Assembly: GCA_964507925.1 (NCBI GenBank)
Contig: CAZDRB010000002.1
Span: 1 to 47,248, forward strand
Origin: an uncultured Pseudomonadales bacterium
GTDB taxonomy: Bacteria; Patescibacteriota; Microgenomatia; UBA1400; UBA12108
DNA: 47,248 nucleotides
Direction of reading: 5' to 3'
Made by a program: the position numbers and the translations under genes
Notes under the pieces: model-generated
Seen by the model: the letters and a program-made list of their open reading frames with translations, nothing else
What the model was told of the DNA's origin: nothing
Databases searched by the model: none
Shown: positions 1,133 through 35,416 of the stretch, in pieces
Layout: each line of letters opens with the position of its first letter
How positions within the stretch are numbered: the stretch's first letter is position 1

Positions 1133-3863
1133 ATTCGTCACCTTAATCTTTGCCCTCGCGTTGTCTCTGCGTCTTTACCAGCTTCCTCAGCGCGCGATCT
1201 GGACCGCAGACGAAGAGTATCAGGCCACATATGCCAACACTATTGTTCAGGATTTTCACCCGATCTGGATCGGAGTTTCAGCTGGTGACACAGGGTTTTA
1301 TCTCGGCCCCTACTTTACTTACCTGACTGCATTCTTACTCAAGATTTTTAGTGACCCAGTCGCGCTTAGTTATTTCTCAGCTCTCCTTGGCGCCACAACG
1401 GTCGTCCTAGTCTATTATCTTGGACGCGCGCTTAAAGACCATCAGACCGGTGTGATTGCCAGTATTCTTATGGCCGTCTCGCCCCTCATGATTTACTTTG
1501 ATCAAAGATACTGGAATCCGAGCCCAGTCCCATTTTTGACCGTCCTCTTGGTGCTTTCACTCTTTCATCTCAAAAAGCACCCGTGGAGCCTAGTTCTGGT
1601 CGCATTTTGCCTAGGAGCAATCTGGAATGTTCACCTCTCACTCGTCCCTCTTTATCTGCCCGCTATCTGGTATACATATCAAGCACGAAAAAGTATTCGG
1701 ATCAACACCTGGGTGATAAGTGTCCTTACTTTTGGAGCACTCATTCTCCCGCTCGTTATTTTTGATTATCACAAAAATTTTAGCAATCTCTTAACTCCAT
1801 ATCGCTTACTTACAGACAAACGTCCTCGCTCGGATGATGATCGACTCTACGCCCTAGGGAGCACAGCTATCCGCTTTGTGGCGCTTAACCCTGGTAACAC
1901 CAACGACGGCGAGGTAAGAAATAGTTGTGATGAGATCGCAACCAAAGTTAATCCAGTCATCGCCTACATCACCTCATTTTTAATCCTCGCATTTCTTGCC
2001 TTTCCCACTACCTACAAAAACAAAAAAACTAGAGTCCTAGCGCACTCGCTACTCGCGCTCGTTTTAGGGTTCTTACTGTACCCAGGTCCTGTCTCGTCTT
2101 ACTACGCCCTTGTGATCATTATCCCGCGCTTTTATCAACTAGGCGAAACTCCTCACGGTCTGCACATCGACGAAGTGAGTTTTGCCGCCGACGCCAAATC
2201 CCTCGCCGAAACCGGTAAGGACACGTGGGGTGTTACCTTGCCCCGGGTCTTTAAGGCCTTTGGTGAGTACAAAGCACCAGGTCTGACCTACAGCATGGCT
2301 TTTTGGGCCAAGGTAACGGGGACCATGAACAACTATATTGCCCGCCTGCCTTCTGCTATCGCCGGGCTTACTCTAATTTTGATGCTGGTCCTCACCCTCA
2401 AAACTATAGTCCCAAAAGCTCCCCCCATGCTCCTCGCCACCGTCGCCCTGATCCTGGCCTATAGCCCCTGGCATTTTGATATGTCTCGCATTTTTTACGA
2501 AGCCTTTAGCGCTACTGCCTGGATTTCAATCTCTCTGTATTTTGCAACCAGACTGTTGGTACCATCAGCTAAGCGCTCCAAATATGACTGGCTACTCATG
2601 CTCGCCACCGCCTCGATCGCCGGCTACTACTACGCCTCACTCCGCTACGTCATCATCGCTTATGTCGTTCTAGTCTCTTTTCTCCTGGAGCACAAGGTGA
2701 GCGCCGCAGTTAAAAAAAGTCTCCTGGCCTTGTTCTTTGTGGCGGTGGTTGGGTTTGGCTGGGTCGGGGATCTGTTTTCTGATGTTGGCCTAAACCGGCT
2801 CTATTATTATCAACAAAAAGCCAGTTTTGGGAGTGCTCTCGAGATCGATGAGAAGCGCCAGTTCTGCTACCTCGCCCTGGATCGTAACACCGACACCTCC
2901 AAAGGCTGCTATGTCCTCTGGAACAAGCCTGTTTCGCGTTTGACTGGGGCGATAACCACGGTCCTCACTTATCTGGGAACCAACTTTTTGTTTGTCAAAG
3001 GGGTGAGTGAGTATGGTTTTGATAGTGAGTATGGGGCCTACCTCCCGCCCCTCATTCTCTTCTACTTAATCGGCCTATACTACGCACTAACCAGTCTAGT
3101 TAGATTTGTCACCGCAACCTTTACTGCTAACATTCACCGATTAAGTAGCATTGACAAAGTCTTTACTCTCTACCTCAGTTTGGCTCTCCTCTCACTCGTT
3201 CCAGCCGCCATTGCCTTAAACCTTAATATGCGCATGGCAATGGTCAGCTTATACGTAATCGCGATTCTGATTGGGTATGGTCTGTATCAATTTTGCGTGT
3301 ACCTAGGTGCCACCTTCAAGCCAGTCATCCAATTTCTGATTTACTTGGCAGTCGGTGGCCTCTTCCTTTTCTACGCCTTGCAGTCGAGTATTCACTATTG
3401 GTTTGTCTTTACAAAAAGCAACGATCTCCAGTGGACTTCTGACGCAGGGCCTATCTTTAACTATGTCAAAAGTATCTCTGGCAACTACGACCGGATCATT
3501 GATACGGAGCTCCACGGCCCCCTCGCCCCCTACTTTTATGGGGATATCACAACCGACCAGGTCCATCAGGGAGAATATAGTCCTCCCGATGCAATCGGCT
3601 TTACCTACCTGATCAAGGCGGGTAAGTACGAGCTCAACCACATTAATATTAAAGACTTAGCCTGTGAGGTCGTGAGTAAGAATGATAAAAGAAGAACTCT
3701 TGTTATCAGCAATCCTTATCCCGAATTAGTTTCAATGCGCAAATACGAGTCGCGGTCGTGGAACGGCGCCTTACTCCTGCACGAAGTTTATGACTTAGCC
3801 GAAGTTATCGCTTATATGCAGCGCTCCGAGCCTAACTTTATGACCCGTTGCGCTCCCAAATAA
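1122..3863 (+). CDS. Fusion of two GT-C (GT39/PMT_2/ArnT-like) membrane glycosyltransferase modules with a C-terminal soluble domain
   Basis: 913 aa. Module 1 starts LSLRLYQLPQRAIWTADEEYQATYA (acidic DE loop after TM1). Module 2 restarts near residue 330 with IIIPRFYQLGETPHGLHIDEVSFAADAKSLAETGKDTWG. That segment aligns by eye with the N-terminus of the next gene (LLRFPGLNHHMDTLYGDEVALGYNAYAIKETLRDEFG). The C-terminal YDRII...IKAGKYE matches YDQII...IKIGKYY of the next gene. Confidence 0.7.
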   Translation: MGARFVTLIFALALSLRLYQLPQRAIWTADEEYQATYANTIVQDFHPIWIGVSAGDTGFYLGPYFTYLTAFLLKIFSDPVALSYFSALLGATTVVLVYYLGRALKDHQTGVIASILMAVSPLMIYFDQRYWNPSPVPFLTVLLVLSLFHLKKHPWSLVLVAFCLGAIWNVHLSLVPLYLPAIWYTYQARKSIRINTWVISVLTFGALILPLVIFDYHKNFSNLLTPYRLLTDKRPRSDDDRLYALGSTAIRFVALNPGNTNDGEVRNSCDEIATKVNPVIAYITSFLILAFLAFPTTYKNKKTRVLAHSLLALVLGFLLYPGPVSSYYALVIIIPRFYQLGETPHGLHIDEVSFAADAKSLAETGKDTWGVTLPRVFKAFGEYKAPGLTYSMAFWAKVTGTMNNYIARLPSAIAGLTLILMLVLTLKTIVPKAPPMLLATVALILAYSPWHFDMSRIFYEAFSATAWISISLYFATRLLVPSAKRSKYDWLLMLATASIAGYYYASLRYVIIAYVVLVSFLLEHKVSAAVKKSLLALFFVAVVGFGWVGDLFSDVGLNRLYYYQQKASFGSALEIDEKRQFCYLALDRNTDTSKGCYVLWNKPVSRLTGAITTVLTYLGTNFLFVKGVSEYGFDSEYGAYLPPLILFYLIGLYYALTSLVRFVTATFTANIHRLSSIDKVFTLYLSLALLSLVPAAIALNLNMRMAMVSLYVIAILIGYGLYQFCVYLGATFKPVIQFLIYLAVGGLFLFYALQSSIHYWFVFTKSNDLQWTSDAGPIFNYVKSISGNYDRIIDTELHGPLAPYFYGDITTDQVHQGEYSPPDAIGFTYLIKAGKYELNHINIKDLACEVVSKNDKRRTLVISNPYPELVSMRKYESRSWNGALLLHEVYDLAEVIAYMQRSEPNFMTRCAPK

Positions 3864-3867
3864 ACCT

Positions 3868-5499
3868 ATGACCAAATCGATCAAATTATTCCTCATCTTA
3901 GTCCTCACTGTCGCCGCCCTGCTCAGGTTCCCTGGCCTCAACCACCACATGGATACCCTCTACGGGGACGAAGTTGCCCTCGGTTACAACGCCTACGCGA
4001 TCAAAGAGACCCTGCGCGACGAGTTTGGTCGTTTTCTCCCGCTCCAGTTTGAGTCCTGGGGAGACCAAAAGAACCCCGTCTACATCTATCTCACCGCTCT
4101 GGTACAACTAGTGACAGGTCCCACTATGGCCAGCGTGCGCCTCCCTTCCGCCCTCGCTGGCGTCCTGGCTGTCTACCTAACTTATCGTTTGGTTATACTG
4201 CTTAAGCTCGGTAGTCATGTCGCCCTCGCTTCCGCTCTCCTGCTCGCCCTCACTCCCTGGCATATTCATATTAGTCGGGGTGGTTACGAAGCCAATGTCG
4301 CCCTCACCCTCGGCCTTGCCAGCGTAGTTTTGCTGCTATCTCGTCGCTACACTCTCTCTGTTCTCCTGCTCGCCCTCTCGGCCTACACCTACTACACCAC
4401 CAAGCTGTTTGCCCCGATCCTCTTACTCATTACCTGGGTTTACCTGATCGATTGGTCCAAGTATAAAAGTAGTCTCAGAGATTTTGCCAAGTACTGGCTC
4501 CTCGCCTTTGTACTAGCGATCCCCATTATTTACCTTGCCCTTTTTGAGGCTGGTCAGGTTCGTTTTCAGAGTATTAATATTTTTGTGGACAAAACCGTTA
4601 CCCCGAGGGTCGAGCGGGCCCGCAATTTCTTTGATAACCCAGATAGCTTGCTGGCCAAACTGAGCGAAAACCGCTACATCTATCATCTCAGCGATTTTGC
4701 TATGTACTACCTGGAGAACTTCTCCGGACAGTTCCTGTTTGTGGGCGGGGATAGCAACGTTCGCTACGGCCTTGCCGGTCACGGCATGCTCTATATGCTC
4801 GATGCTCCTCTCATTATCCTGGGCCTGATCATGCTCTATCACAAAAACCGGCGTGTCTGGTATTTTCTTGTCGCTTGGCTCTTGCTGGCCCCACTCCCCA
4901 CGGCTCTCGTCGGCCGGGCCTACGGCCTGCGTAGCCTCGCTATGCTCCCAATCCCCCAGATCTTGGCTGCTTACACCCTATATACTTGGTATCTCTCAAC
5001 TAAAAAATCAAGAATAATTGCAGCTACCTATATACTATTTACTATTTGCTATATACTTGGCGTTTCCAACTGGCTCCACCGCTACTATTACCAATATCCC
5101 TCCTACGGTCGCTACTGGTACGACGCTCCGATGCAGGATGCAATCACTTACACCAAAGCGCGGGAATCCAAGTACGATCAGATCATCATTAGTCAGAGTT
5201 ATGGCGAAGTCTCGATGTACTATGCCTACCTCAACCAGATTCACCCCGATGTTTATCGGGAGGCCAAGGCTAATCGGGTCATGGTCGATGGTGTCCCCAT
5301 GATCAAAATTGGCAAATATTACTTTGGGGATATCAGACCCAAAGGGCCAATCGAAAAGATGGATATTCCCTACAACACCCTCATTCTGGTCCAACCCTAC
5401 TTTGAATACGGTGAAGAAGCGATCCTCGCCAGGGACGATGGTCGTCCGATCTACCGTGTTTTCGAGTTCCCGACCGTCCACATGAAATCAAAAAAATAA
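3868..5499 (+). CDS. GT-C family (GT39/ArnT/PMT-like) membrane glycosyltransferase
   Basis: 543 aa with many TM helices. YGDEV acidic loop motif after TM1 and a C-terminal soluble domain. Paralogue of the second half of 1122..3863. Confidence 0.7.
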   Translation: MTKSIKLFLILVLTVAALLRFPGLNHHMDTLYGDEVALGYNAYAIKETLRDEFGRFLPLQFESWGDQKNPVYIYLTALVQLVTGPTMASVRLPSALAGVLAVYLTYRLVILLKLGSHVALASALLLALTPWHIHISRGGYEANVALTLGLASVVLLLSRRYTLSVLLLALSAYTYYTTKLFAPILLLITWVYLIDWSKYKSSLRDFAKYWLLAFVLAIPIIYLALFEAGQVRFQSINIFVDKTVTPRVERARNFFDNPDSLLAKLSENRYIYHLSDFAMYYLENFSGQFLFVGGDSNVRYGLAGHGMLYMLDAPLIILGLIMLYHKNRRVWYFLVAWLLLAPLPTALVGRAYGLRSLAMLPIPQILAAYTLYTWYLSTKKSRIIAATYILFTICYILGVSNWLHRYYYQYPSYGRYWYDAPMQDAITYTKARESKYDQIIISQSYGEVSMYYAYLNQIHPDVYREAKANRVMVDGVPMIKIGKYYFGDIRPKGPIEKMDIPYNTLILVQPYFEYGEEAILARDDGRPIYRVFEFPTVHMKSKK

Positions 5500-5501
5500 G
5501 A

Positions 5502-5533
5502 CTTTATGAGCTTTATAAACTTTATAACTTTAT
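5502..5533. repeat. Four tandem CTTTAT units in the 32-nt intergenic spacer
   Basis: CTTTAT occurs at 5502, 5511, 5520 and 5528 (spacing 9, 9 and 8 nt). The last copy overlaps the ATG at 5532. Confidence 0.8.
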
Positions 5534-6191
5534 GAACTCAATATACGTTATAGTCCCGGCCTACAACGAATCCCGTTACCTCGCCCGCTTTTTAGCCAAG
5601 CTCACCAAACTAACTCACAACATCGTCGTCATCGACGATGGGAGTCGCGATGACACTACCGCTATCGCCAAAGACTACGGCGTTACTACCCTGACTCACA
5701 TGACCAATCTCGGTAAGGGCGCGGCCCTAAAAACGGGGTGCGAGTATGCCTTTACCAAGCTAGGAGCCGACGCCGTGATTATCATGGACGGCGATGACCA
5801 GCATGACCCCGCAGACCTCCCCAAATTCAAAACTACTCTCAAAAATGGGGCCGAGATTGTACTGGGCGTCAGAGCCCTAGACAGCAATATGCCGCTCTCT
5901 CGGCTCCTGGGCAACAAACTAATGTCTGTCCTAGTAAACGTCCTATTTGGTCGCTACATTGCGGACATCCCCAGTGGCTTCAAAGCCATGACCAAAAAGG
6001 CCTATCGCCAACTACAGTGGTACAGTAGTGGCTACGAAGTTGAGGCCGAGCTCGCAGTCCGCATCGCCAAAAGCAAGCTAAAATATGTCGAAGTCCCGAT
6101 TTCAACCATTTATCATGACAAAGAGTATGGCTTTAACCTCCTCGACGCTTTCCGTATTATAATTAAGATACCTTATTGGATCTGGAGTTAG
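5532..6191 (+). CDS. GT2 glycosyltransferase, polyprenyl-phosphate sugar synthase-like (DPM1/GtrB catalytic domain) lacking C-terminal TM helices
   Basis: VIVPAYNES, VVIDDGSRDDT and IIMDGDDQHDP (DxD) motifs. Only 219 aa and ends without a hydrophobic anchor. Confidence 0.75.
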   Translation: MNSIYVIVPAYNESRYLARFLAKLTKLTHNIVVIDDGSRDDTTAIAKDYGVTTLTHMTNLGKGAALKTGCEYAFTKLGADAVIIMDGDDQHDPADLPKFKTTLKNGAEIVLGVRALDSNMPLSRLLGNKLMSVLVNVLFGRYIADIPSGFKAMTKKAYRQLQWYSSGYEVEAELAVRIAKSKLKYVEVPISTIYHDKEYGFNLLDAFRIIIKIPYWIWS

Positions 6192-6194
6192 ACT

Positions 6195-6515
6195 ATGCAA
6201 GGAATACAAATAGCCTCTCTTATTTTTATTTTTATCATGCTCTACGTTGTTCGCATCCATTACAAAAAAAGCGAACTACCTAGGGCCGAAGCAATTTTTT
6301 GGTCATTAATTCTCCTCGTTCTTGGGACTTTGGTCGTGGTAGAGGATAGCGCCAACTTCATTCGAAACCTCTTTCAGGTATCTCGCCTTTTAGACGTTGT
6401 CATGATCGTTGCCTTTATGGGTACCTTCATTTTCTTAATCGAGAATCGGATTCAGATCAGTAAGCTCCGCTCCAAACTAGAAAAACTAACACGCGAGAAG
6501 GCCATGGAGCAATAG
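6195..6515 (+). CDS. Small 3-helix membrane protein, DUF2304-like, partner of the preceding GT2
   Basis: 106 aa with three hydrophobic helices followed by a charged helical tail (KLRSKLEKLTREKAMEQ). Lies 3 nt after the GT2 stop. Same architecture as 17513..17857. Confidence 0.6.
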   Translation: MQGIQIASLIFIFIMLYVVRIHYKKSELPRAEAIFWSLILLVLGTLVVVEDSANFIRNLFQVSRLLDVVMIVAFMGTFIFLIENRIQISKLRSKLEKLTREKAMEQ

Positions 6516-6607: not shown

Positions 6608-7168
6608 ATGAATATACTGGATCTATATCAAACCAAACAATCAGTCTACACTAGCCAAGAGCTATCTCAACTATTCCCGGACGACTCACCTCAAAAACTA
6701 AATAGTGCTCTGCATTATGCCGTCAAAACAGGCAAGTTAAAGCGCCTAAGACGGGGTATATATGTTAAAAACGACTACTCTGTTATAGAGTTGGCCAACT
6801 GTCTCTATATCCCAAGCTACGTCAGTCTCGAAACAGTTCTCCGTGCAAACGGGATCATTTTCCAGGCTGATACTAGTATTCAATCTGTCTCCTATCTTTC
6901 TAGGGAAGTCTTGGTTGATCAAACCAAATTAATCTATCGTAAATTAAAGTATCAGGTTTTGACCAACCCCCTTGGCTTAGTGGTTAATGGTCGTGAAGCT
7001 ATGGCAACTCCAGAGCGAGCACTTCTTGATTCCTTAATAGTCTTCAAAGACTATCACTTTGACAATCTATCGGGAGTCAACTGGGACCTTGTCGAGACCC
7101 TCCTTCCGATCTATCAGAGCAAAATCCTGATCGCCAAAGTATCCAAACTACGTAAGGGGATAAAGTAA
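6608..7168 (+). CDS. abiEi: AbiEi-family antitoxin / transcriptional regulator (type IV TA system)
   Basis: 186 aa. N-terminal wHTH-like segment ends in the characteristic KLKRLRRGIYV motif. Sits immediately upstream of, and 1 nt overlapping, an AbiEii-type gene. Confidence 0.7.
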   Translation: MNILDLYQTKQSVYTSQELSQLFPDDSPQKLNSALHYAVKTGKLKRLRRGIYVKNDYSVIELANCLYIPSYVSLETVLRANGIIFQADTSIQSVSYLSREVLVDQTKLIYRKLKYQVLTNPLGLVVNGREAMATPERALLDSLIVFKDYHFDNLSGVNWDLVETLLPIYQSKILIAKVSKLRKGIK

Positions 7169-7863
7169 TGAATCAAGACTACAATATCCACAAAGAGATC
7201 CTAGTTCGCATTCTTAAAGATATTTATACCGATCCAGTTCTCGGCAAAGCATTGGGTTTTAAGGGTGGAACAGCCGCCTACCTGTGCTACGGCCTCCCAC
7301 GTTCCTCAGTCGACCTAGACTTTGACCTTCTAAAAACAGAGAGTCAAACCCAGGTCTGGGTTAAGTTGGGCGACATCATCAAAAATTACGGGGTTATCAT
7401 TGACTCACACCAAAAATCTCAAACATTACTGTACGTCATTCAATACAAAAAAGAATCCTGGCATATCAAAGTAGAGGTATCACTTAGGACAACTCTCGCC
7501 AACTATCTGCCATTCTCATACCTTGGTATTCCATTAATAATCGTTGATAAACCCGGGATGTTGTCAGGCAAGCTGGCTGCCCTAATCGGTCGGCCTAGTC
7601 TCGCTTCCCGAGACCTCTTTGATGTCTGGTATTTTCTCTCCAACAACTGGGTTGCTGACGAGACACTTCTACAGGATCTAACAGGTCAGTCACAGCGTGA
7701 AGTCTATGAGCAGGCAGTCAAAAAAGTCTCTTCAATTCCAGATAATCAGCTACTGCAAGGGATGGGTGAACTCTTAACTCATCAACAAAAAGACTGGGTC
7801 AAAAACAAGCTAAAGTCAGAGCTACTATTTTTATTAAATCTTAAGCTATCTCACAATGAATAA
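7168..7863 (+). CDS. abiEii: AbiEii/AbiGii-family nucleotidyltransferase toxin (DUF1814)
   Basis: 231 aa with FKGGTAAYLCYGLPRSSVDLDFDL, the GGTA...R.S.DlDf nucleotidyltransferase motif of AbiEii. TAATG overlap with abiEi. Confidence 0.75.
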   Translation: MNQDYNIHKEILVRILKDIYTDPVLGKALGFKGGTAAYLCYGLPRSSVDLDFDLLKTESQTQVWVKLGDIIKNYGVIIDSHQKSQTLLYVIQYKKESWHIKVEVSLRTTLANYLPFSYLGIPLIIVDKPGMLSGKLAALIGRPSLASRDLFDVWYFLSNNWVADETLLQDLTGQSQREVYEQAVKKVSSIPDNQLLQGMGELLTHQQKDWVKNKLKSELLFLLNLKLSHNE

Positions 7864-11711: not shown

Positions 11712-12792
11712 TATCCTCTATCTGATCCCAGACAGAGTAGGGGGAACCGAAACCTACGCCAGACACTTAATTAGCGCACTTACCAAGCAGCTAAAAGAGG
11801 GTGATGAGTTGGTCATATATGCCAGCCGCGAGACTGCCCCGACCTTCAACGAATCTAAGCATGTAAAAATTATTACTCTACCGGTTTTCTCAAACAATCG
11901 CCCACTTCGCCTCCTTGCTGAGCAGCTCCTCCTGCCCCTATATCTACTACGAGACCGGGTTAATGTCATTTTTTCCCTAGGTTACAGCTCCCCCTTCCTT
12001 CACCCTTGTCCCGCGATAGTGACGATCCATGATCTCAACTGGTATTACCACCCCGAGGACTTTGGGTTTGTCAGTAGGATTATGTGGAGTATGCTCACCA
12101 GGCTCTCGGCCCACACCGCTAACCATGTCCTAACCGACTCCTCCAACTCAGCACGCAGCATCAAAATAGTACTAAATCCTCGTTCCGTAACCCCCATTCT
12201 TCATGCCACTCCAGTTAAAGCTCGGCCGGCGAAACCTAGCTTCAAATTACCAACTAGCTACCTCTTCACTGTCAGCGCCAGCTATCCGCACAAAAACTTA
12301 ACAACTCTTATAAAGGTATTCAACGTTCTAGCCAGCATGCATCAAAATCTGTATTTAGTGATCTGCGGATTATCTGGCAAAGCAAGCAACAATTTAAAGA
12401 AGGAGATTAGCACATCTCCATTTAAGGATAGAATTATCACGCTTGGCTACATTACGAATGCAGAATTGAGTTATGTCTACTCTCAAGCAGATATTTTTGT
12501 TTTCACCTCTGCCTACGAAGGTTTTGGCTACCCCGTACTCGAAGCCATGAGTTATGGTGTGCCCGTAGTCAGTAGTAATGCTACCTCGCTAACAGAGGTT
12601 GTGGGGGATGGAGCAGTACTAGTGGATCCTTACGAAGTCCCAGCTTACACTCGTGCAATTACCAAAATATTAAGTGATAAAAATTACAAAAAAATGTTAA
12701 TAGCTCGCGGCTACAAGCGTGCCACTGAGTTACAATGGGATCAAACTGCCAAGAGTACACTAAGTATTATCTATAAGGAAGCAAGGTCATGA
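11695..12792 (+). CDS. GT4 (GT-B, group 1) glycosyltransferase
   Basis: MRIGLNILYLIPDRVGGTETY start and the EX7E motif EGFGYPVLEAMSYGVPVVSS. I prefer ATG 11695 to the tracked 11653 start, which runs 59 nt into the upstream gene. Confidence 0.8.
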   Translation: MRIGLNILYLIPDRVGGTETYARHLISALTKQLKEGDELVIYASRETAPTFNESKHVKIITLPVFSNNRPLRLLAEQLLLPLYLLRDRVNVIFSLGYSSPFLHPCPAIVTIHDLNWYYHPEDFGFVSRIMWSMLTRLSAHTANHVLTDSSNSARSIKIVLNPRSVTPILHATPVKARPAKPSFKLPTSYLFTVSASYPHKNLTTLIKVFNVLASMHQNLYLVICGLSGKASNNLKKEISTSPFKDRIITLGYITNAELSYVYSQADIFVFTSAYEGFGYPVLEAMSYGVPVVSSNATSLTEVVGDGAVLVDPYEVPAYTRAITKILSDKNYKKMLIARGYKRATELQWDQTAKSTLSIIYKEARS

Positions 12793-13496
12793 CAAACTAT
12801 TTACAACATATGCAACAACTAGGGCAAGGAACTGCTTTTGCACGTCGTAAACGATATCTCGAATACAATTTCGCCGAGCATTTAGATAAACTGAATAGTG
12901 ACAGCGAAGTGCTCGAAATTGGTCCAGGCACAGGGGAGATGTTAAGTATTTTAAACGAGAAAAATATTAAAAATCTCGACATTATCGATAATGACCAAGC
13001 AGTCCTTAACTACTGCCAAAAAGAATATAGGTTGCGTAAGGCAATGTTGTCCAAATCACTGGATTTAACAAAGGTGATTACTAAACAAAAGTATGACCTC
13101 ATCGTCTTAACCCAAGTATTCGAGCATATTCCTAAATCTAGCTACCAAAATTGGATCAAAACACTCTACCGATCACTTAAGGTTGGCGGCACTATTCTTA
13201 TTACCGTTCCGAACGGTGCCAACCCCCTATCAGGGACTGAGCGATATGGGGACTTACAGCACGAGAACATGTTTACCATCTACTCCTTCCAGGAATTGAT
13301 GACTTTTGCAGGCATTGGTAGTAGGGAGTATCAGATTAAGGGATTCTATATTCCACCTGACAATCTTCTCCAAATTGTGCGCATCATCTTACAGAAAGTA
13401 CTTCATCTCTTCTTTATCCTACTCATGATTATCAACGGGGCAATTTATCAGACCTTAATGACGCCGAATATCTCACTCATCATTAATAAAAAGTAA
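12789..13496 (+). CDS. Class I SAM-dependent methyltransferase
   Basis: VLEIGPGTGEM (motif I), DLIVLTQVFEHI and LKVGGTILITVPN. ATGA overlap with the upstream gene. Confidence 0.75.
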   Translation: MTNYLQHMQQLGQGTAFARRKRYLEYNFAEHLDKLNSDSEVLEIGPGTGEMLSILNEKNIKNLDIIDNDQAVLNYCQKEYRLRKAMLSKSLDLTKVITKQKYDLIVLTQVFEHIPKSSYQNWIKTLYRSLKVGGTILITVPNGANPLSGTERYGDLQHENMFTIYSFQELMTFAGIGSREYQIKGFYIPPDNLLQIVRIILQKVLHLFFILLMIINGAIYQTLMTPNISLIINKK

Positions 13497-13501
13497 TTAA
13501 T

Positions 13502-14227
13502 ATGAGTTTAATTACTAATCTTTCTAAGCTTCTAGTTCGTATTTCTAATCCAAGATACTTCCTAAACATTATCTTATTTGGGTATCTAAACAAACATCAG
13601 AATCAATCTTTCTCTCAAGAGGGGGAAGATAGAATCCTATTTAGTATTTTTGGTCCGAGGACTAGTGGTTTTTACGTTGATGTAGGAGCACATCATCCTC
13701 GAAGGTTTTCTAACACCTTTTTGTTTTACAACTTAGGTTGGCGAGGTATTAATATCGACGCAAGCAAAGAGGCAATTAGATTATTTAAGGTGGAAAGAAA
13801 AAGAGATATAAATATTCACTGCGGTATTGGCAGTAGGGCGGGGTATAAACAATTTATCGTTTTCGACGAGCCAGCAGTAAGTACTTTTAACAAAGCCGTA
13901 GCCCAAGATAAAGTTAATAACACGAAGTTTCGCGTACGCTCTAGGGTAAAAGTCCCCATCAGACCCCTATCTCAGGTCCTGAGACGTCATCTGAAAAGCA
14001 ATCAAGTCATTGATTTTCTGAGCATTGACGTCGAGGGGAATGATTTCGAAGTTTTAAAGTCAAATAACTGGAAGAAATATCGTCCACTCTACATTGCAAT
14101 CGAAATATACGGGGTCAAAGATTTTAATACTGTTTTACAAGATCCAGTCACTTTCTACTTAGCTAAGCACCACTATGCTCCAATTGCAAAAACGTTAAAT
14201 ACTGTGATCTATAAAAGAATCCAATAA
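13502..14227 (+). CDS. FkbM-family methyltransferase
   Basis: GFYVDVGAHHP, GWRGINIDAS and IDFLSIDVEGNDFEVL motifs typical of FkbM-type methyltransferases. Confidence 0.7.
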   Translation: MSLITNLSKLLVRISNPRYFLNIILFGYLNKHQNQSFSQEGEDRILFSIFGPRTSGFYVDVGAHHPRRFSNTFLFYNLGWRGINIDASKEAIRLFKVERKRDINIHCGIGSRAGYKQFIVFDEPAVSTFNKAVAQDKVNNTKFRVRSRVKVPIRPLSQVLRRHLKSNQVIDFLSIDVEGNDFEVLKSNNWKKYRPLYIAIEIYGVKDFNTVLQDPVTFYLAKHHYAPIAKTLNTVIYKRIQ

Positions 14228-15291
14228 TGATCAAACGTACTATTCATCTCCTACAACTACTTAGCTATAAGATATTATCTTTGCTAAAGCTCAATCACAC
14301 CATTTTTAATTTTCACTGTGACCATAATAGCAATCCTCGGTTGAAGATATATGTCTATGATCTTCCATATTACTACTCAAAAAACGATCATTTTGACTTA
14401 AGGGTAACTTATCAGACTTTTGAGGCGATTAACTCATATTTTAAAAAATGCGTTAGAACTTTTGATCCAACACAAGCCGACTATTTCTTTGTCCCGATTA
14501 ATCTCCATCGATTTCAATACCATAATCATAATCCCAAGGATCTACTTAATCATTTGCATTACTTGACCAACAAGAAAGATCACATTATCGTAGCAACTGG
14601 AGACTTTGCCCAACGGGGGAAGCATTATGGTCATGGACAAGCCTACAAGATGCACTTCGAATGGCTAAAAGATTTCATCCTACTCGCACTAGAGTCGACT
14701 CCAGATTTAATCCCCAATCAAGATATTGGTCTTATCCCATACAATACGCTTTCAAAGAACCCTAGTTATAATCACAACCATCGTAAGTACTTATATTCAT
14801 TTTTAGGAAATAGCTATCAAGATTATTTACCAGTCTCACATGTTCGACGACGCTTATTTTCCCTTACGACATATCCAGATACACTAATCTCAGAATCTCT
14901 CTCCAACGAGCTAAGTCATGAATTATCAAAAAATTATCGAACTAATAATGAATACGAGCTACTCAGTCGAAATAGTATTTTTACACTTGTTCCCGCTGGA
15001 TATGGGCGTTGGACTTATCGTTTCTTTCAGTCAATACAGTGGGGATCTATTCCAGTTTTGTTGTCTGACAACTACCTTTTGCCTTTCAACGATCAAGTCC
15101 CATATGAAAAATTTAGTATCAGAATCGCGGAGTCAGACATTAGTCGACTCAACTCGATAATCCGAGGCATATCAGATAAAAAAATAAAATCTATGCAAGC
15201 CGAGCTAAAAAAAGCACAGCAACTTTTTACTCCAGACCACTTTTTCGCTATGCTATTTAAACAACTAGTTAAACAACGAAAGTATATTTAA
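14227..15291 (+). CDS. Exostosin (GT47)-like glycosyltransferase
   Basis: LKIYVYDLP near the N-terminus and FTLVPAGYGRWTYRFFQSIQWGSIPVLLSD near the C-terminus. Both resemble exostosin-domain signatures. Confidence 0.55.
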   Translation: MIKRTIHLLQLLSYKILSLLKLNHTIFNFHCDHNSNPRLKIYVYDLPYYYSKNDHFDLRVTYQTFEAINSYFKKCVRTFDPTQADYFFVPINLHRFQYHNHNPKDLLNHLHYLTNKKDHIIVATGDFAQRGKHYGHGQAYKMHFEWLKDFILLALESTPDLIPNQDIGLIPYNTLSKNPSYNHNHRKYLYSFLGNSYQDYLPVSHVRRRLFSLTTYPDTLISESLSNELSHELSKNYRTNNEYELLSRNSIFTLVPAGYGRWTYRFFQSIQWGSIPVLLSDNYLLPFNDQVPYEKFSIRIAESDISRLNSIIRGISDKKIKSMQAELKKAQQLFTPDHFFAMLFKQLVKQRKYI

Positions 15292-16829
15292 TGAATAATT
15301 TAATAAAACTAGGTATCGTCTCCTTCTTAATAACTTTTGTCGTATCACTAACGATTCATCCTTTTGAGATCCCTGACGAGAATGCTCACTACGCAAGTCT
15401 GAATTTCTTTAGCAACGAAGGTAGAATGCCAACTAAATACGACAAAGACAATCTCTCTTTAGAAGAATCGCGCGTTGAAGAGATTTTTGGAATAGTAGCT
15501 GGGAGCAATAAGTATTCTTATCACCCAGAATACCGGATCGAGCAAATCGATGGTATTGATGGTAAATATGAAGCAGAAATAAAATCACTCAACACTAAGG
15601 ATAATCGTAATACCTACCAAGATCACCGTGCCGCGCTCTATCCCCCTCTCTATTACGCTCTCACCCTGCCTTTTCATTCATTAGTCTCAGGCAGCGATCT
15701 TCTGAGCCGACTATTTTTCGCACGTTTGTCTTCAGTTCTATTTACTACTTTTACCATTCTAGTGGCTTACTCAATTGGCAAATACTTTAGTCGTGATGAA
15801 TCATTCGCCATAACCCTTTCAGGCATAACCCTTTTTTACCCGATGACCACCTATGTAGGCTCAGGGGTTAACTCAGACAACCTTCACAACTTGCTTTTTG
15901 CCATATCTATTTATTACTGCTTTAGGTTGATCAAGGAAGGTTTTGAGCATAAAAACGCACTAATTCTTGGATCCCTCGTTGGCTTAGACATGCTCACCAA
16001 GCCTCAGGCATATATTCTTTTTCCTCTTATTTTCTTAGCAATTATCATCAGGTGGCAATGGGCAAAGTGGCGAGAAATTATTCGGTATTTGTTTCTCCTA
16101 GTTATTCCTGTAGTTATTTTTGCTGGTTGGCAGGAAATCCCCAAATTCCTTGGCGGCAATCCTTATGCGATAGCAACCAGTGCCTTCACTGGTTGGCATA
16201 ATTTTCAGAATTTCCTATCTGGCTACATTCACACCCATCTTCGAGAAATGCCGGTATGGTATTGGGGAGTTTTCAAATGGTTTGGCTTAGTTTTGCCTAG
16301 ACCTTGGTGGTGGATCAGCATCCGCTTAGTAGTCGTTGCCGCATTAGGTGTCCTGATTAACTTTTATCGCGATATGCGTAAACATAAGCTCAGTGTTGAA
16401 TCAAAAATCATGCTCTGGATAGTAGGAGCAAACGCTATCTACGCCCTTGCTCTTATGTGGTTTGACTGGCAGTTTTATCAAATGTTAGGGCGCTCTCTTG
16501 GCTTGCAGGCCAGATACTATATGCCACTCCTAATTACTCAGATGTTGTTTGTGTTATACGGCTTAACTAGCTTATTTAAAGTTTCAAAGCTTAGTCACTA
16601 TGTCAGTATAGGACTCCTCTTATTTTTTGCTTCGATGTATTTGGCGGGCATATTTGTACAGCTGAGTGGTTATTATGACTTAACAAGTCTAAATATCTTC
16701 ATTGATCAACTTTCCCAATACAAACCTTGGTATGCCAAAGGACAGTGGTGGTACTTATGGTTTATAACCATGTTTATTGCTATGATCACGCTCATTAAAG
16801 GAATAATCTCTTCTAGCAAGCCAAAATGA
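15291..16829 (+). CDS. DUF2142-like polytopic membrane protein (predicted GT-C-type transferase)
   Basis: 512 aa. FEIPDENAHY loop after TM1, YPPLYY, GVNSDNLHNLLF and VWYWGVFKWFG motifs. Clear paralogue of 30825..32363. Confidence 0.65.
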   Translation: MNNLIKLGIVSFLITFVVSLTIHPFEIPDENAHYASLNFFSNEGRMPTKYDKDNLSLEESRVEEIFGIVAGSNKYSYHPEYRIEQIDGIDGKYEAEIKSLNTKDNRNTYQDHRAALYPPLYYALTLPFHSLVSGSDLLSRLFFARLSSVLFTTFTILVAYSIGKYFSRDESFAITLSGITLFYPMTTYVGSGVNSDNLHNLLFAISIYYCFRLIKEGFEHKNALILGSLVGLDMLTKPQAYILFPLIFLAIIIRWQWAKWREIIRYLFLLVIPVVIFAGWQEIPKFLGGNPYAIATSAFTGWHNFQNFLSGYIHTHLREMPVWYWGVFKWFGLVLPRPWWWISIRLVVVAALGVLINFYRDMRKHKLSVESKIMLWIVGANAIYALALMWFDWQFYQMLGRSLGLQARYYMPLLITQMLFVLYGLTSLFKVSKLSHYVSIGLLLFFASMYLAGIFVQLSGYYDLTSLNIFIDQLSQYKPWYAKGQWWYLWFITMFIAMITLIKGIISSSKPK

Positions 16830-17509
16830 ACTTATTAATCATCGTTCCTGCCTACAATGAAGCCGAGGTAATCGTAGATACGATTACTGGGATCCGTCGA
16901 ACACTTAACGCCGATAAGTTTCAGGCAGAAATTCTCGTGGTAGATGATGGTAGTAGTGATCAAACAGGTAAATTAGCGTTCAAGCATGCTGATTATTTAG
17001 TTACTCACCGCGTCAATCGCGGACTAGGCGCAGCCTTGATGACCGGCATCGAATTCGCTAAGCGCCAAGAGTATGACATCTGCGTCACTTTTGACTCCGA
17101 TGGTCAGCACGATCCGAGAGATATCGCCAGGGTAGTAAGTGCGATTGAGAAGGGATCTGACATCGTGATTGGGAGTCGATTTTTGGGGAGTCATAGCAAC
17201 ATGCCCAAGATGAGGCGCATCATCCTCTCCCTTGGTAATTTCATTACCTATCTCTTCTTTGGTGTATGGACTAGTGACTCGCAATCTGGCTTTCGTGCAC
17301 TCTCTCGTAGAGCCATCCAATCTCTCATCCTCAAAAGCAATCGCATGGAGGTCAGTAGTGAATTTTTTGCCGAGATCAAAAGGTTAAATTTAAAGTTTGC
17401 TGAGATTCCTATTCACATCAACTATACTGCTTACTCCCTAAAAAAAGGACAAAAGAATACTGCCAGCATGAGCGTTCTGATAAAATTACTTTATAAAGTA
17501 TTTGGATAA
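16826..17509 (+). CDS. GT2 glycosyltransferase, polyprenyl-phosphate sugar synthase-like, lacking C-terminal TM helices
   Basis: IIVPAYNEAEVI, VVDDGSSDQT and TFDSDGQHDP motifs. 227 aa with no terminal hydrophobic segment. ATGA overlap with the DUF2142 gene. Confidence 0.75.
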   Translation: MNLLIIVPAYNEAEVIVDTITGIRRTLNADKFQAEILVVDDGSSDQTGKLAFKHADYLVTHRVNRGLGAALMTGIEFAKRQEYDICVTFDSDGQHDPRDIARVVSAIEKGSDIVIGSRFLGSHSNMPKMRRIILSLGNFITYLFFGVWTSDSQSGFRALSRRAIQSLILKSNRMEVSSEFFAEIKRLNLKFAEIPIHINYTAYSLKKGQKNTASMSVLIKLLYKVFG

Positions 17510-17512
17510 ACT

Positions 17513-17857
17513 ATGGAACTGATACTCCCGATTCAATTTGTTTTAACAGTTTTTATCGTTTTCGCTGCTTCTCGGGCCATTCTGCAGTTTAAGGGTGGAA
17601 TGATCAGGTTTGGAGCCATGCTGTTTTGGCTCGGAATCTGGATTGTTGCCGCGATAGCAATCTTTTACCCAGAGGCCACAACCCGCTTTGCCCGCCTTTT
17701 AGGGATTGGGCGTGGTGTTGATGTCATTCTATATGTCTCGATCGCCATCCTTTTTTACTTAGTTTTTCGTTTGCACGTGTATCTAGAAGACCTAAGATCC
17801 GAAATTAGTACCCTAATCAGAGAGCTCAGTCTCAAAGAAGTGAAAAAAAAGAAATAA
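17513..17857 (+). CDS. Small 3-helix membrane protein, DUF2304-like
   Basis: 114 aa with three hydrophobic helices plus a charged tail (LRSEISTLIRELSLKEVKKKK). Lies 3 nt after the GT2 stop. Paralogue of 6195..6515. Confidence 0.6.
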   Translation: MELILPIQFVLTVFIVFAASRAILQFKGGMIRFGAMLFWLGIWIVAAIAIFYPEATTRFARLLGIGRGVDVILYVSIAILFYLVFRLHVYLEDLRSEISTLIRELSLKEVKKKK

Positions 17858-19623
<1,766 letters not shown>

Positions 19624-19628
19624 CCCAT

Positions 19629-20873
19629 ATGAATGACGATATCGTTATAGACGTAAAAAACATCAGTAAAAAATATACTATCGCTACTGATTACCAGCCA
19701 GATACCTTACGCGAAAAAATAGTTGAACTAGCCAAGTATCCTCTCAAAGTCTTAAAAGGAGAGCATCAAAAGCCTAAGACCAAAGAATACTGGGCACTAA
19801 AGGATGTGTCTTTTCAGGTAAAAAGGGGAGAAGTGCTGGGGATTATTGGTAAAAATGGGGCAGGTAAAAGTACTCTACTCAAGATCCTCTCTCGCACTAC
19901 TGAGCCTACCTCAGGCACTATCCAAATGAAGGGTAAGGTAGCTTCACTCCTTGAAGTAGGCACGGGGTTTAACCCAGAGCTGACAGGTAGAGAAAACATC
20001 TACCTCAATGGCGCCATTATTGGTATGTCCAAGAAAGAGATCAACTCCAAGTTCAACGAAATAGTTGAGTTTGCTGGGATCGGAGAATTCTTAGATACTC
20101 CCGTCAAACGCTACTCCTCAGGCATGTATGTGCGCCTAGCCTTTGCAGTAGCCGCCCACCTTGATTCTGACATTCTAATATTAGATGAAGTTCTTGCTGT
20201 CGGAGATGCAGAGTTCCATAAGAAGAGCTATAAAAAAGTCAAGGACTTGGTGTATTCAGGAAAAACAATAGTCATTGTTAGTCATCAAATGTCAGCCGTA
20301 AGAGAGTTAGCATCTTCGGTCATAGTTATCGAAAAAGGAAAACTAATTAATAATGGAGAGACTAATCTAGTAATACATAAATACTTAAATACAAAAGATA
20401 ATAATGATAATCTCATAACAAGATTCACGAGGAATGACACCCAAAAAAAGTTACTATTAAAAAGTATCTCGATCGAAGCTAGTAATCCAAATTCTAAGGA
20501 TATTAAATATGGAGATACGCTTCAAATAACAGTGAGAACTAATAAGATAAAATCGCCAGTTTTTGCAATTGAGATAATAATAAAAAATGACATGATGGAA
20601 AAAATATGTTACTTAACAACAATGACTACCATGGGATACGAATACATCGCTAGTGGGTCTAAGGTAGAGTTGCTTACTGAGCCATTAAATTTAGCTGAAG
20701 GCAGATATTGGATTGACGTCAATTGCAGACAATATCCAAATATACATGTAGATCGTTGGAATGATGCAGGATATTTCGACATAAAACAGGCAATAGTAGG
20801 TAATGCTACTCATTCTACGCGCACTATCGAGTCTTTAGGTTCATGGATAATAAAAAGCAAGACTACTCTTTAA
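19629..20873 (+). CDS. wzt: ABC exporter ATPase with a C-terminal extension of about 160 aa (Wzt/TagH-type, putative glycan-binding domain)
   Basis: Walker A GKNGAGKSTLLKIL, signature YSSGMYVRLAFAVA and Walker B ILILDEVLAVGD. Residues about 250-414 are an extra beta-rich domain. Confidence 0.8.
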   Translation: MNDDIVIDVKNISKKYTIATDYQPDTLREKIVELAKYPLKVLKGEHQKPKTKEYWALKDVSFQVKRGEVLGIIGKNGAGKSTLLKILSRTTEPTSGTIQMKGKVASLLEVGTGFNPELTGRENIYLNGAIIGMSKKEINSKFNEIVEFAGIGEFLDTPVKRYSSGMYVRLAFAVAAHLDSDILILDEVLAVGDAEFHKKSYKKVKDLVYSGKTIVIVSHQMSAVRELASSVIVIEKGKLINNGETNLVIHKYLNTKDNNDNLITRFTRNDTQKKLLLKSISIEASNPNSKDIKYGDTLQITVRTNKIKSPVFAIEIIIKNDMMEKICYLTTMTTMGYEYIASGSKVELLTEPLNLAEGRYWIDVNCRQYPNIHVDRWNDAGYFDIKQAIVGNATHSTRTIESLGSWIIKSKTTL

Positions 20874-29857: not shown

Positions 29858-30832
29858 ATGGGTAAAATCTTAGTTACTGGCGGATGTGGTTATATCGGTA
29901 GCCACGTTGTCAAAGCGCTTTCTGAGGCAGGGGAAACTGTGGTTGTGTATGACAATCTCACTCAGGGCAATCAATCAGCGCTCCTTGGCAATGAGGAGTT
30001 GGTTGTCGGTGACATCCTAGATACATTAAAGCTTAATAGTGTCTTTCAATCCCATGATATTGAGGCTGTTGTTCATTTGGCAGCTCTAGTTAATGCAGCA
30101 GAAAGTGTAAGTAAAGCAGACCTCTATCATGAGGTTAATGGCCGGGGTTCACAAAATGTCTGGGAAGCTGCGCTAAGTCATCGAGTTAAACATCTCATAT
30201 ATGCTAGTTCTGCCGCAGTCTATGGCACTCCAACTAGCACCGAACCTATTTCCGAAAATGCACCAACTATCCCCACCAACCCTTACGGAGAGAGTAAGCT
30301 AGCTGGTGAAAAATCACTCATCGAACTGTCAGTAAATCGTGCCAATTATCTAGCCTTTAGATTCTTTAACGTTGGCGGAGCAGAGAGTCTGGGGAGGCTT
30401 GGTCAAAGTTTGGCGAGCCGAGCTATTATGCAGCGTCTCTACGCGCATACCCTAGAAGGTGCTGAACCAGTGGTCATTAGTGGTAATGACTACAACACCC
30501 CTGATGGGACAGTTGTCCGAGACTTTGTTCATGTTGAAGACATCGCAAGCGCGATAGTTATGGGGATCAAGCATCTAAGAGCGGGCAATTCCTCAGCAAT
30601 CCTTAATCTAGGTGGGGGTGAGGCTCACACCATAGATGAAGTGATAAAACGTGTTGAAGCAGTTGTTGGCCATCCACTCTCGATAGTTTATGGCCCACGT
30701 AACCCTGGAGACATTAGTTACTCCTTGGCGAATATTGCGAACGCTAAAAAGCTACTATCATGGTCTCCTACTAGGAGTTTTAAAGATATTGTCGAAAGTG
30801 GTTATAACTCATATAGGAACCGTCATGCTTAA
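29858..30832 (+). CDS. galE: UDP-glucose 4-epimerase
   Basis: ILVTGGCGYIGSH, YGESKLAGE (YxxxK) and VRDFVHVEDIA motifs. 324 aa. Confidence 0.8.
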   Translation: MGKILVTGGCGYIGSHVVKALSEAGETVVVYDNLTQGNQSALLGNEELVVGDILDTLKLNSVFQSHDIEAVVHLAALVNAAESVSKADLYHEVNGRGSQNVWEAALSHRVKHLIYASSAAVYGTPTSTEPISENAPTIPTNPYGESKLAGEKSLIELSVNRANYLAFRFFNVGGAESLGRLGQSLASRAIMQRLYAHTLEGAEPVVISGNDYNTPDGTVVRDFVHVEDIASAIVMGIKHLRAGNSSAILNLGGGEAHTIDEVIKRVEAVVGHPLSIVYGPRNPGDISYSLANIANAKKLLSWSPTRSFKDIVESGYNSYRNRHA

Positions 30833-34730: not shown

Positions 34731-34790
34731 AGGACAATTATCGCATATCAGAAAACTAGACAACTAGGCGCAATTTGTTACATTTAATTA

Positions 34791-35396
34791 ATGGCAGAAA
34801 ACATTGATCTATCCGAGCGCGCGAGTGAAAGCAAAAAAACGGTCGGCCGCTCAGTTTCGGTAAACGGTGTTCACGCGATTGATTTAGACGTCAAAAAATC
34901 CGAGAACTTGAATGACCCGCTCCTTGATATCAACCTCAGGCTCAACAATCCCGTCGGTCGGCTCTGGTTGGCGCTCAAGAGGATCTGGAAATCACAAAAC
35001 ACTATCCTCAATTTTCGCTTTACCATCCCCCTCCTTGTTTTGCCGATCTTAATTTATGTTCTTTGGTTACTTTGGCAGGGGAGAGGTGCCTCGATTCCCA
35101 TGTCCAAGCTAGGTGTCATTCACGAAGTAAAAATAGATAATACTCCAACCGATATCTTGGTTCTCCCCACGGCTGATGTTTATGTGCTCTCATATTCTGG
35201 GAGCTTTGACTACAACACACGCCTCAAGGACAAGCCAGTGATCGCGGTCGGCCTATACCGCGCGAGCGCCAATACTTTGCGGGTCGATAGCCTGATCCCC
35301 TACGATGAGCTTGATCTACCCAAAACTCCCGTAAGTAGCTCTCAATCTAGGTCGGTCTGGGACACAATTTGGGATTTTATTACCCAGTTCCGCTGA
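34791..35396 (+). CDS. Single-pass membrane protein of unknown function
   Basis: 201 aa. Charged N-terminus, one TM helix (FTIPLLVLPILIYVLWLLW), then a beta-rich C-terminal domain. No motif recognised. Confidence 0.5.
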   Translation: MAENIDLSERASESKKTVGRSVSVNGVHAIDLDVKKSENLNDPLLDINLRLNNPVGRLWLALKRIWKSQNTILNFRFTIPLLVLPILIYVLWLLWQGRGASIPMSKLGVIHEVKIDNTPTDILVLPTADVYVLSYSGSFDYNTRLKDKPVIAVGLYRASANTLRVDSLIPYDELDLPKTPVSSSQSRSVWDTIWDFITQFR

Positions 35397-35416
35397 CCAT
35401 CTGCTATCATGTCATC

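Follow-up and report, generated by a model that had tools for sequence, protein, structure and literature searches.

The cooperation of a cytoplasmic glycosyltransferase (GT) of family GT2 with a small membrane protein of the DUF2304 family and a polytopic transferase of the GT-C fold has been described in Streptococcus pyogenes, Lactococcus lactis and Mycobacterium tuberculosis. In S. pyogenes, the DUF2304 protein GacJ co-purifies with GacI, a GT2 without transmembrane (TM) segments that acts as N-acetylglucosamine (GlcNAc)-phosphate-undecaprenol synthase (10.1101/180810). In the presence of GacJ, the Km of GacI for undecaprenyl phosphate falls from 18.7 to 1.1 µM and its Vmax rises from 54 pmol to 18.5 nmol/min/mg, i.e. 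about 340-fold (10.1101/180810). The GT-C protein GacL moves GlcNAc to polyrhamnose, with the Wzx-type GacK as the proposed flippase (10.1101/180810); gacK is still needed for the GlcNAc side chains although gacJ is present. In L. lactis, WpsB activates WpsA, an AlphaFold2 model of the complex has been published, and fusions are active in the order WpsB-WpsA and inactive in the order A-B (PMC10821137). WpsJ and WpsI have been assigned to DUF2142 (PMC12599335). PpgS of M. tuberculosis is assisted by Rv3632, and galactosamine (GalN) is passed on to arabinogalactan by the GT-C protein Rv3779; the flippase of this pathway is still unidentified (PMC9671496). A cytoplasmic GT-A enzyme bound to a separate membrane protein, together with a flippase and a GT-C protein, is also depicted in a review from 2021 (PMC8035078). 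Here we report on a stretch of 47,248 nt (contig CAZDRB010000002.1 of assembly GCA_964507925.1, positions 1 to 47,248; the whole stretch is called the window) from an uncultured bacterium of the candidate phyla radiation (CPR). It carries three adjacent genes, called the triad, for a 512-aa polytopic protein, a 227-aa GT2 and a 114-aa DUF2304 protein. The triad belongs to a kind of multi-component transmembrane glycosylation system that is already known from GacIJL, WpsABJ and PpgS-Rv3632-Rv3779 and of which it is a new member, from CPR; we consider it likely that the triad operates as a GacI/GacJ/GacL-type system in its Microgenomates/Woesebacteria-like host. A preliminary description of the locus, made from the sequence, had presented the triad as a possibly undescribed variant system and had stated that neither DUF2142 nor DUF2304 has a defined role. 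Both statements are superseded by the work cited above: DUF2304 is the GacJ/WpsB/Rv3632 family, the role of which has already been defined biochemically, and the computations proposed in that description have largely been done and published for homologues.

Judged by their homologues, the three open reading frames (ORFs) of the triad are genuine genes and not chance ORFs, since over 100 homologues were found for each of the three proteins, with E-values between 1e-40 and 1e-290, and since the gene order of the triad was seen again on independent contigs. The GT-C and GT2 genes share an ATGA overlap at positions 16826-16829. The junction between the GT2 and DUF2304 genes (17507-17515) consists of a TAA stop codon, a 3-nt gap (ACT) and the ATG start at position 17513, and the two ORFs share one reading frame. 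The three ORFs, the overlap and the gap were all confirmed with the coordinates first given for them. The gene preceding the triad, which encodes a GT47-family enzyme, overlaps the GT-C gene by 1 nt (TAATG); together with the other two junctions, this indicates translational coupling of four genes. Three alternatives, namely a chance ORF, a pseudogene and recoding of the stop codon between the GT2 and DUF2304 genes, were considered and rejected, as the stop is TAA and hundreds of separate homologues exist for both proteins.

The 227-aa protein matched Glycos_transf_2 (PF00535) with an E-value of 7.9e-28, and the motifs PAYNE, DDGSSD and DSDGQHDP noted before were present in its translation, with DSD (DxD motif) at residues 90-92. 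A hydropathy scan revealed no TM segment, whereas two were found at the C-terminus of the GtrB-type GT2 encoded in the same window (33804-34763), in agreement with the earlier statement that the triad enzyme lacks these helices. The homologues listed had lengths of 223-238 aa, save for one fragment of 191 aa. The best of 22 NCBIfam matches was PpgS (NF058614), which was matched over the full length with 8.6e-46 and 156.2 bits, and the AglJ model was matched with 82 bits (cutoff 325). Sequence matches in the PDB were DPMS (1.2e-16), ArnC (1.6e-11) and GtrB (2.6e-5). These sequence comparisons point to a polyprenyl-phosphate sugar synthase of the GacI/WpsA/PpgS type.

The 114-aa protein matched the DUF2304 model (PF10066) with an E-value of 2.1e-22 and 79.8 bits (cutoff 25.5), residues 7-109 covering positions 2-104 of the 106 model positions. 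Hydrophobic segments were located at residues 1-19, 33-51 and 71-89 and were followed by a charged helical tail, and both the hydropathy scan and the structural model described below bore out the earlier description of three hydrophobic helices with a charged tail. In size and layout the protein agrees with its family, members of which have about 105-125 aa, three TM helices and an amphipathic or charged helix at the C-terminus. The predicted topology is that of three TM helices, N-out/C-in, with a cytoplasmic C-terminal helix. Natural single-chain DUF2304-GT2 fusions came to light when the concatenated pair was used in an exhaustive HMMER scan, and in eight of the eight fusions inspected DUF2304 was N-terminal and GT2 C-terminal; a word-indexed search gave no GT2-DUF2304 fusion among its best 120 matches. 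The domain order of the natural fusions is opposite to that of the genes and also to the GtrB arrangement. Since DUF2304 is N-terminal in them, it is not a split-off C-terminal anchor of the GtrB type, as had been suggested as one of two options, and the finding that only the B-A fusion is active in L. lactis speaks against that option as well. The N-terminal position fits both the N-out/C-in topology with three TM helices and this published fusion activity. From its family and its pairing, we infer that the DUF2304 protein is the activating and anchoring subunit of the GT2.

A pseudo-fusion of the two window proteins in the order DUF2304-GT2 was modelled from an alignment bridged by rows of the natural fusions. 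The model (predicted local distance difference test, pLDDT, 89.3; predicted template modelling score, pTM, 0.85) showed three TM helices followed by a short interfacial helix and by another of 40 residues that runs into the GT-A domain, the helices of the DUF2304 part being placed at residues 4-24, 30-51, 53-62 and 68-107. According to this model, the DUF2304 protein may form a complex with the GT2 and may stimulate lipid-sugar synthesis. In a Foldseek search with the pseudo-fusion, ArnC, DPMS and GtrB were on top with E-values of about 1e-14 to 1e-11; the alignments spanned about 230-240 columns and covered the GT2 part only, a sequence-order alignment being blind to mimicry of a C-terminal anchor. 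An alignment of 38 DUF2304 sequences, comprising CPR loci, archaeal-labelled loci, natural fusions and both copies encoded in the window, showed that R67 and D70 are invariant (38/38) and that G64, G68, Y74 and R103 are conserved in 37 of the 38. The motif GIGRGVD is predicted by the model to lie at the outer-leaflet end of TM3, opposite the active site of the GT2.

The 512-aa protein was matched by Pfam PMT_2 (PF13231) with 1.1e-8 and 35.9 bits (cutoff 26.1) over residues 142-278, while no match to Pfam DUF2142 (PF09913) was obtained even at E<=10. Among 64 homologues with 35-83% identity, 34 matched DUF2142 (best 3.5e-29) and 14 matched PMT_2, so the family straddles the border between DUF2142 and PMT_2. 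By these matches, the label DUF2142 fits the neighbourhood of the family and not the protein itself. Of the three family assignments in the preliminary description, DUF2304 and Glycos_transf_2 were thus found, and DUF2142 was replaced by PMT_2. Nine strong hydrophobic segments were seen in the hydropathy scan. The sequence PDENAHY occupies residues 28-34, and P28, D29, E30 and H33, directly after TM1, were invariant across the 64 homologues. This P-D-E-x-x-H sequence sits where the acidic loop-1 motif of GT-C enzymes usually lies and might have a catalytic role. An AlphaFold2 (AF2) model calculated from the 64-sequence alignment (pLDDT 93.1, pTM 0.93) was a multi-helix polytopic structure. When this model was compared with the PDB by Foldseek, the first 35 or so ranks were exclusively GT-C proteins with a probability of about 1.0 and TM-scores of 0.40-0.48; they included Pmt4, ArnT, AftA, AglB, STT3, ALG9, DPY19, EmbB, ALG6, PglB and PimE. 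Sequence searches of the PDB with the protein and with its 64-sequence profile gave nothing at E<=1. With its invariant loop residues and its modelled structure, the protein can confidently be predicted to adopt a GT-C fold with an ArnT/PMT/STT3-like core, as had been expected from its acidic loop and its many helices, and it would act as an extracytoplasmic transferase that uses a lipid-linked sugar.

A scan of species-representative genomes with the DUF2304 alignment gave 28 loci, all of them in metagenome-assembled genomes (MAGs) of CPR/Patescibacteria or in MAGs labelled as DPANN archaea. Neighbouring genes were called with hidden Markov models (HMMs) built from our own alignments, and 27 loci were testable, one being cut at a contig end. 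A short GT2 gene was located directly upstream of the DUF2304 gene in 25 of the 27 and at most 1.3 kb away in the remaining two; the pairing of GT2 and DUF2304 is essentially invariant. GT-C proteins of the window family (>=50% identity) adjoin the pair in L001 and L003-L005 and are encoded one gene off in L002. In about 12 of the 28 loci, a GT-C gene of this or another family was found no more than about two genes from the pair, the other families being PMT_2 (L007, L026, L029), PIG-V-like (L008, L014, L015) and STT3 (L023). Distant members of the window family (36-40% identical, DUF2142-labelled) adjoin a GalE-like epimerase, a GtrB-type GT2 and a polytopic protein of about 500 aa. The expected co-occurrence was accordingly found for the GT2 with DUF2304 and did not extend to the GT-C partner, which varies beyond close relatives. 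Because the pair is constant while the GT-C neighbour varies, the conserved unit is the GT2-DUF2304 donor module, with which GT-C proteins are exchangeable.

In the Microgenomates loci, the block (GT-C)-GT2-DUF2304-Fcl-like-Wzm-Wzt is syntenic. Identity across these loci was 72-86% for DUF2304, 63-70% for the GT2 and 50-51% for the GT-C protein, and synteny of the Fcl-like gene was observed at 74-86% identity in L002 and L004-L007. The GT47 gene was present only in L001 and was missing from the otherwise syntenic L002-L007; it is operon context only. Pairs with 37-52% identity to that of the window were found in eight loci (L010, L011, L016, L018-L021 and L023) whose MAGs are labelled Woesearchaeota, Nanoarchaeota or 'Methanosarcinales archaeon'. 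L023, one of these eight, has an STT3/AglB-type gene beside the pair. These archaeal-labelled pairs could result from gene sharing between CPR and DPANN or from mislabelled bins. Several CPR-like contigs also carry the labels 'Pseudomonadales' or 'Gammaproteobacteria', which looks like mis-annotation.

We propose the following mechanism for the triad. At the cytoplasmic face, the DUF2304 partner would keep the TM-less GT2 at the membrane and activate it, the cytoplasmic C-terminal helix of DUF2304 contacting the N-terminal side of the GT2. The GT2 would load polyprenyl phosphate with a single sugar taken from a nucleotide sugar, and the resulting polyprenyl-P-sugar would be flipped by a protein encoded outside the triad operon. 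Outside the membrane, the GT-C protein would use the lipid-sugar to decorate a glycan. The acceptor would most plausibly be the polymer exported by the adjacent Wzm/Wzt transporter, which is probably the exporter of the acceptor polymer. The block in the window parallels the GAC cluster, in which an ABC-exported rhamnan is decorated via GacIJKL. In this scheme, the enzymatic activity, the sugar, the acceptor and the flippase are putative assignments. Its outline, a lipid-sugar synthase with a small membrane partner and an extracytoplasmic GT-C transferase, had already been drawn in the preliminary description and is upheld by the grouping of the GT2, the GT-C fold and the obligate adjacency of GT2 and DUF2304.

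The likeness to GacI/J/L, WpsA/B/J and Rv3632/Rv3779 was drawn from family models and published descriptions. As in the Gac system of S. pyogenes, a TM-less GT2 is combined with a DUF2304 protein of about 113 aa with three TM helices, encoded directly downstream, and with a GT-C protein, and in both cases the cluster includes a backbone glycan exported by an ABC transporter (GacD/E there, Wzm/Wzt here). In contrast to Gac, no equivalent of the Wzx-type GacK is encoded in the window operon, the GT-C gene precedes and overlaps the GT2 gene, and the host is a CPR bacterium. WpsA, WpsB and WpsJ of L. lactis likewise comprise a GT2, a DUF2304 protein and a GT-C protein, the latter of DUF2142 type there and matching PMT_2 rather than DUF2142 here. 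The active B-A fusion of L. lactis and the AF2 complex published for it agree with the N-terminal DUF2304 of the natural fusions and with the confident pseudo-fusion model of the window proteins. A difference is that the lipid-GlcNAc of L. lactis is a primer elongated before flipping, with a Wzx-type WpsG in the locus. The PpgS-Rv3632-Rv3779 system of M. tuberculosis and Corynebacterium glutamicum, which serves GalN modification of arabinogalactan, shares the small DUF2304-type partner beside the GT2 and the final transfer by a GT-C protein; in M. tuberculosis, however, the gene for the GT-C protein Rv3779 lies apart from ppgS, and no deacetylation step is implied for the triad. Gtr, Csd and CsbB-YfhO systems also combine a polyprenyl-P-sugar donor with a GT-C protein, and the catalytic domain of the GT2 is homologous to GtrB; unlike GtrB, the triad GT2 is without TM helices at its C-terminus and works with DUF2304 as a separate subunit, and no GtrA was detected in the window. 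A likeness to archaeal AglJ and AglB/STT3 is seen in the matches of both GT2 proteins of the window to the AglJ model, which at 82 and 112 bits are far below the cutoff of 325. Unlike archaeal dolichyl phosphate (Dol-P) N-glycosylation, the window is bacterial (CPR) and its GT-C protein is ArnT/PMT-like rather than STT3.

Several observations weigh against the GacI/GacJ/GacL-type scheme. The 156 bits of the GT2 are far under the 370-bit equivalog cutoff of PpgS, and the sugar is therefore not defined; by sequence the enzyme is homologous to PpgS, and its score supports neither orthology nor specificity for N-acetylgalactosamine (GalNAc). By analogy with GacI, WpsA and PpgS, an N-acetylhexosamine (HexNAc) would be the most likely sugar. 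The TM1-TM2 hairpin of the pseudo-fusion model reached a pLDDT of only 60-79, and the interface between the two proteins is a putative one derived from that model. The GT-C partner is not kept beyond close relatives, and the link of the GT-C protein to this GT2 therefore rests on translational coupling and analogy. No initiating enzyme of the PNPT or PGT type was detected among the ORFs of the window, including lenient scans of the unassigned ones. No flippase of the GtrA, Wzx, SMR or MATE type was found in or beside the triad operon, and the sole Wzx-like gene of the window (36052-37320) lies 18 kb off in another gene block and outside the conserved synteny. A GtrA match (PF04138) was not obtained among the scanned window ORFs of at least 106 aa, and no further free small multi-TM ORF was seen in the window beyond the two DUF2304 genes.

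The absence of an initiating enzyme from the window leaves room for a scheme in which the product of GT2 and DUF2304 is a primer. On it, the cytoplasmic GTs of the island (GT4, GT47, GT2 and GT11) and the methyltransferases would build an oligo- or polysaccharide on polyprenyl monophosphate, which would be exported, possibly by Wzm/Wzt, and transferred or polymerised en bloc onto an acceptor by the GT-C protein. There is a precedent in L. lactis, where cytoplasmic GTs extend the GlcNAc-P-C55 formed by WpsA/WpsB and where WpsJ is the final transferase and WpsI the polymerase. The match of the GT2 to AglJ, an archaeal Dol-P hexosyltransferase, the STT3/AglB gene beside the pair in L023, the coupling of the GT47 gene to the GT-C gene and the conserved synteny of the pair with Wzm/Wzt are also in line with such priming. 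However, an initiating enzyme may be encoded elsewhere, like GacO in S. pyogenes, and neither the GT47 gene nor the methyltransferase genes are kept beside the triad in related loci. In addition, no documented case was found of an ABC transporter exporting a monophosphate-linked polymer, and the GT-C protein is without the large soluble domain of the oligosaccharyltransferase kind. Priming is regarded as unlikely, and slightly more so in the narrower form in which the pair initiates a glycan on polyprenyl monophosphate that is exported by the syntenic Wzm/Wzt and ligated by the GT-C protein. If true, this form would join the logic of Wps and archaeal Agl to an ABC-transporter pathway, a hybrid not described before.

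The variable GT-C neighbour could also mean that the 512-aa protein uses a different lipid-linked donor, e.g. that of the GT2 at 33804-34763, and that its adjacency to the pair is operon packing. Distant GT-C proteins of the same family, including the paralogue at 30690-32363 in the window, do adjoin GalE and a GtrB-type GT2. But the ATGA overlap between the GT-C and GT2 genes and the presence of the subfamily with at least 50% identity beside the pair, or one gene off, in five loci stand against this, and the recurrence of different GT-C families right beside the pair argues for a link between donor and transferase. Mere packing is very improbable. The other option raised for DUF2304 in the preliminary description, that it is a non-GtrA flippase for the lipid-linked sugar, lacks positive evidence and is the least credible, also in the form in which DUF2304 doubles as a flippase or flippase adaptor. 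It would suit the absence of a flippase gene from the triad operon, the still unidentified flippase of the M. tuberculosis PpgS pathway, the predicted position of the invariant R67/D70 away from the active site of the GT2 and the stronger conservation of DUF2304 compared with the GT2 and the GT-C protein. But what was measured for GacJ was a change in the kinetics of GacI, in a membrane assay for which flipping is not required, and gacK is required in S. pyogenes with gacJ present. In addition, three TM helices would be a small number for a transporter, oligomers excepted, and the R67/D70 motif could be a purely structural turn. As a related possibility, the outer-face R67/D70 of DUF2304 might take part in hand-over or translocation of the lipid-sugar, and this would account for the missing flippase.

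With the triad read as a GacI/GacJ/GacL-type system, the locus adds little as a system, the architecture of GT2, DUF2304 and GT-C being covered by biochemistry and reviews. Its significance is modest and lies in comparison: the module is strongly conserved and common among CPR bacteria and apparently also among DPANN archaea, two groups whose envelopes are almost unstudied, and one donor module is combined with several GT-C families. The R-x-x-D motif invariant throughout DUF2304 and the lack of a flippase gene linked to the pair offer handles on two questions, the activation of the synthase by GacJ-type proteins and the passage of the lipid-sugar across the membrane.

Table 1. Positions of the triad genes, their neighbours and other glycan-related features in the window
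Feature	Position	Strand	Evidence
GT-C fold polytopic glycosyltransferase (predicted), 512 aa	15291-16829	+	Pfam PMT_2, AF2 model, Foldseek
TM-less GT2, 227 aa, putative GacI/WpsA/PpgS type	16826-17509	+	Glycos_transf_2, NCBIfam, PDB matches
DUF2304 small membrane protein, 114 aa	17513-17857	+	PF10066, hydropathy scan
Exostosin/GT47-family cytoplasmic glycosyltransferase	14227-15291	+	PF03016 2.7e-37
GDP-L-fucose synthase-like SDR epimerase/reductase (Fcl-like)	17888-18817	+	NCBIfam Fcl 3.9e-87
Wzm, ABC-2 permease	18796-19623	+	PF01061 2.1e-16
Wzt, ATPase with C-terminal Wzt_C carbohydrate-binding domain	19629-20873	+	PF00005 3.8e-26; Wzt_C 1.6e-8
Second set, GT-C, 913 aa	1122-3863	+	PMT_2 4.5e-7, 13 hydrophobic segments
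Second set, GT-C, 543 aa	3868-5499	+	PMT_2 1.6e-7, 7 hydrophobic segments
Second set, TM-less GT2, 219 aa	5532-6191	+	own GT2 HMM 9.4e-45
Second set, DUF2304 protein, 106 aa, 3 TM	6195-6515	+	PF10066 7.7e-14
GalE	29858-30832		above NCBIfam equivalog cutoff
Paralogue of the 512-aa GT-C, 36% identical	30690-32363
499-aa polytopic protein	32308-33807	-
PgfS/GtrB-like GT2	33804-34763	-	two C-terminal TM segments, residues 234-252 and 277-295
DUF5674 protein, between the GtrB-type system and the Wzx-like gene	35369-35755	+	2e-21
Polysacc_synt (Wzx-like) gene	36052-37320		5.1e-23
PMT_2 GT-C-like protein	39970-41295
Wzy_C/O-antigen-ligase-like gene	45480-47126

A second complete set of GT-C, GT2 and DUF2304 genes, which had been overlooked in the preliminary description, is encoded at positions 1122-6515 of the window (Table 1). 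Its 219-aa GT2 showed 33% identity to the 227-aa GT2 (4e-38), had no TM segment in the hydropathy scan and scored 112 bits with AglJ and 101 bits with PpgS in NCBIfam. Its DUF2304 protein was missed at E<=1e-5 by a narrow DUF2304 HMM built from CPR sequences with at least 64% identity, and was found by the TM scan and Pfam (52.3 bits against the cutoff of 25.5, model positions 2-103 of 106); hhalign against alignment A2 gave a probability of 87%. The junction between the two genes, TAG-ACT-ATG, has the same stop-ACT-ATG layout as that in the triad. The two DUF2304 paralogues of the window are only about 21% identical, and this low identity, together with that of the two GT2 proteins, fits co-evolving specific pairs. 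An AbiEi-like antitoxin gene (weak, 4.5e-4) and a gene for an AbiEii nucleotidyltransferase toxin (1.9e-17), forming a type IV toxin-antitoxin pair (6608-7863, + strand), are inserted between this second set and the next GT2 gene of the island.

The whole window is one glycan-assembly island. It encodes 12 or more cytoplasmic GTs (GT2, GT4, GT11 and GT47), 5 or more methyltransferases and 6 or more polytopic proteins that are GT-C-like, and 3 of its proteins are candidate polyprenyl-P-sugar synthases. Two GT2-DUF2304 modules, a GtrB-type one and this number of GT-C-like proteins imply heavy investment in extracytoplasmic glycosylation, which is remarkable for a CPR bacterium. The genes from GalE to the PgfS/GtrB-like GT2 (29858-34763) make up a third lipid-sugar system, and the same set of genes is found around the distant DUF2142 homologues in L030 and L032. 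The true start of the GT-C paralogue in this system is probably later than called, because the called start overlaps GalE by about 140 nt. The Fcl-like gene downstream of the triad reached 292 bits against an NCBIfam cutoff of 500. The GT47 gene upstream of the triad showed its strong Exostosin match in a CPR bacterium and no match to any NCBIfam model. In E. coli O8/O9a-type ABC-dependent O-antigen pathways, a methyl cap that is recognised by the transporter ends the chain. Two methyltransferase genes of the Methyltransf_23 and FkbM types are located upstream of the triad (12789-14227), and together with the Wzt_C domain of Wzt they recall this mode of chain termination.

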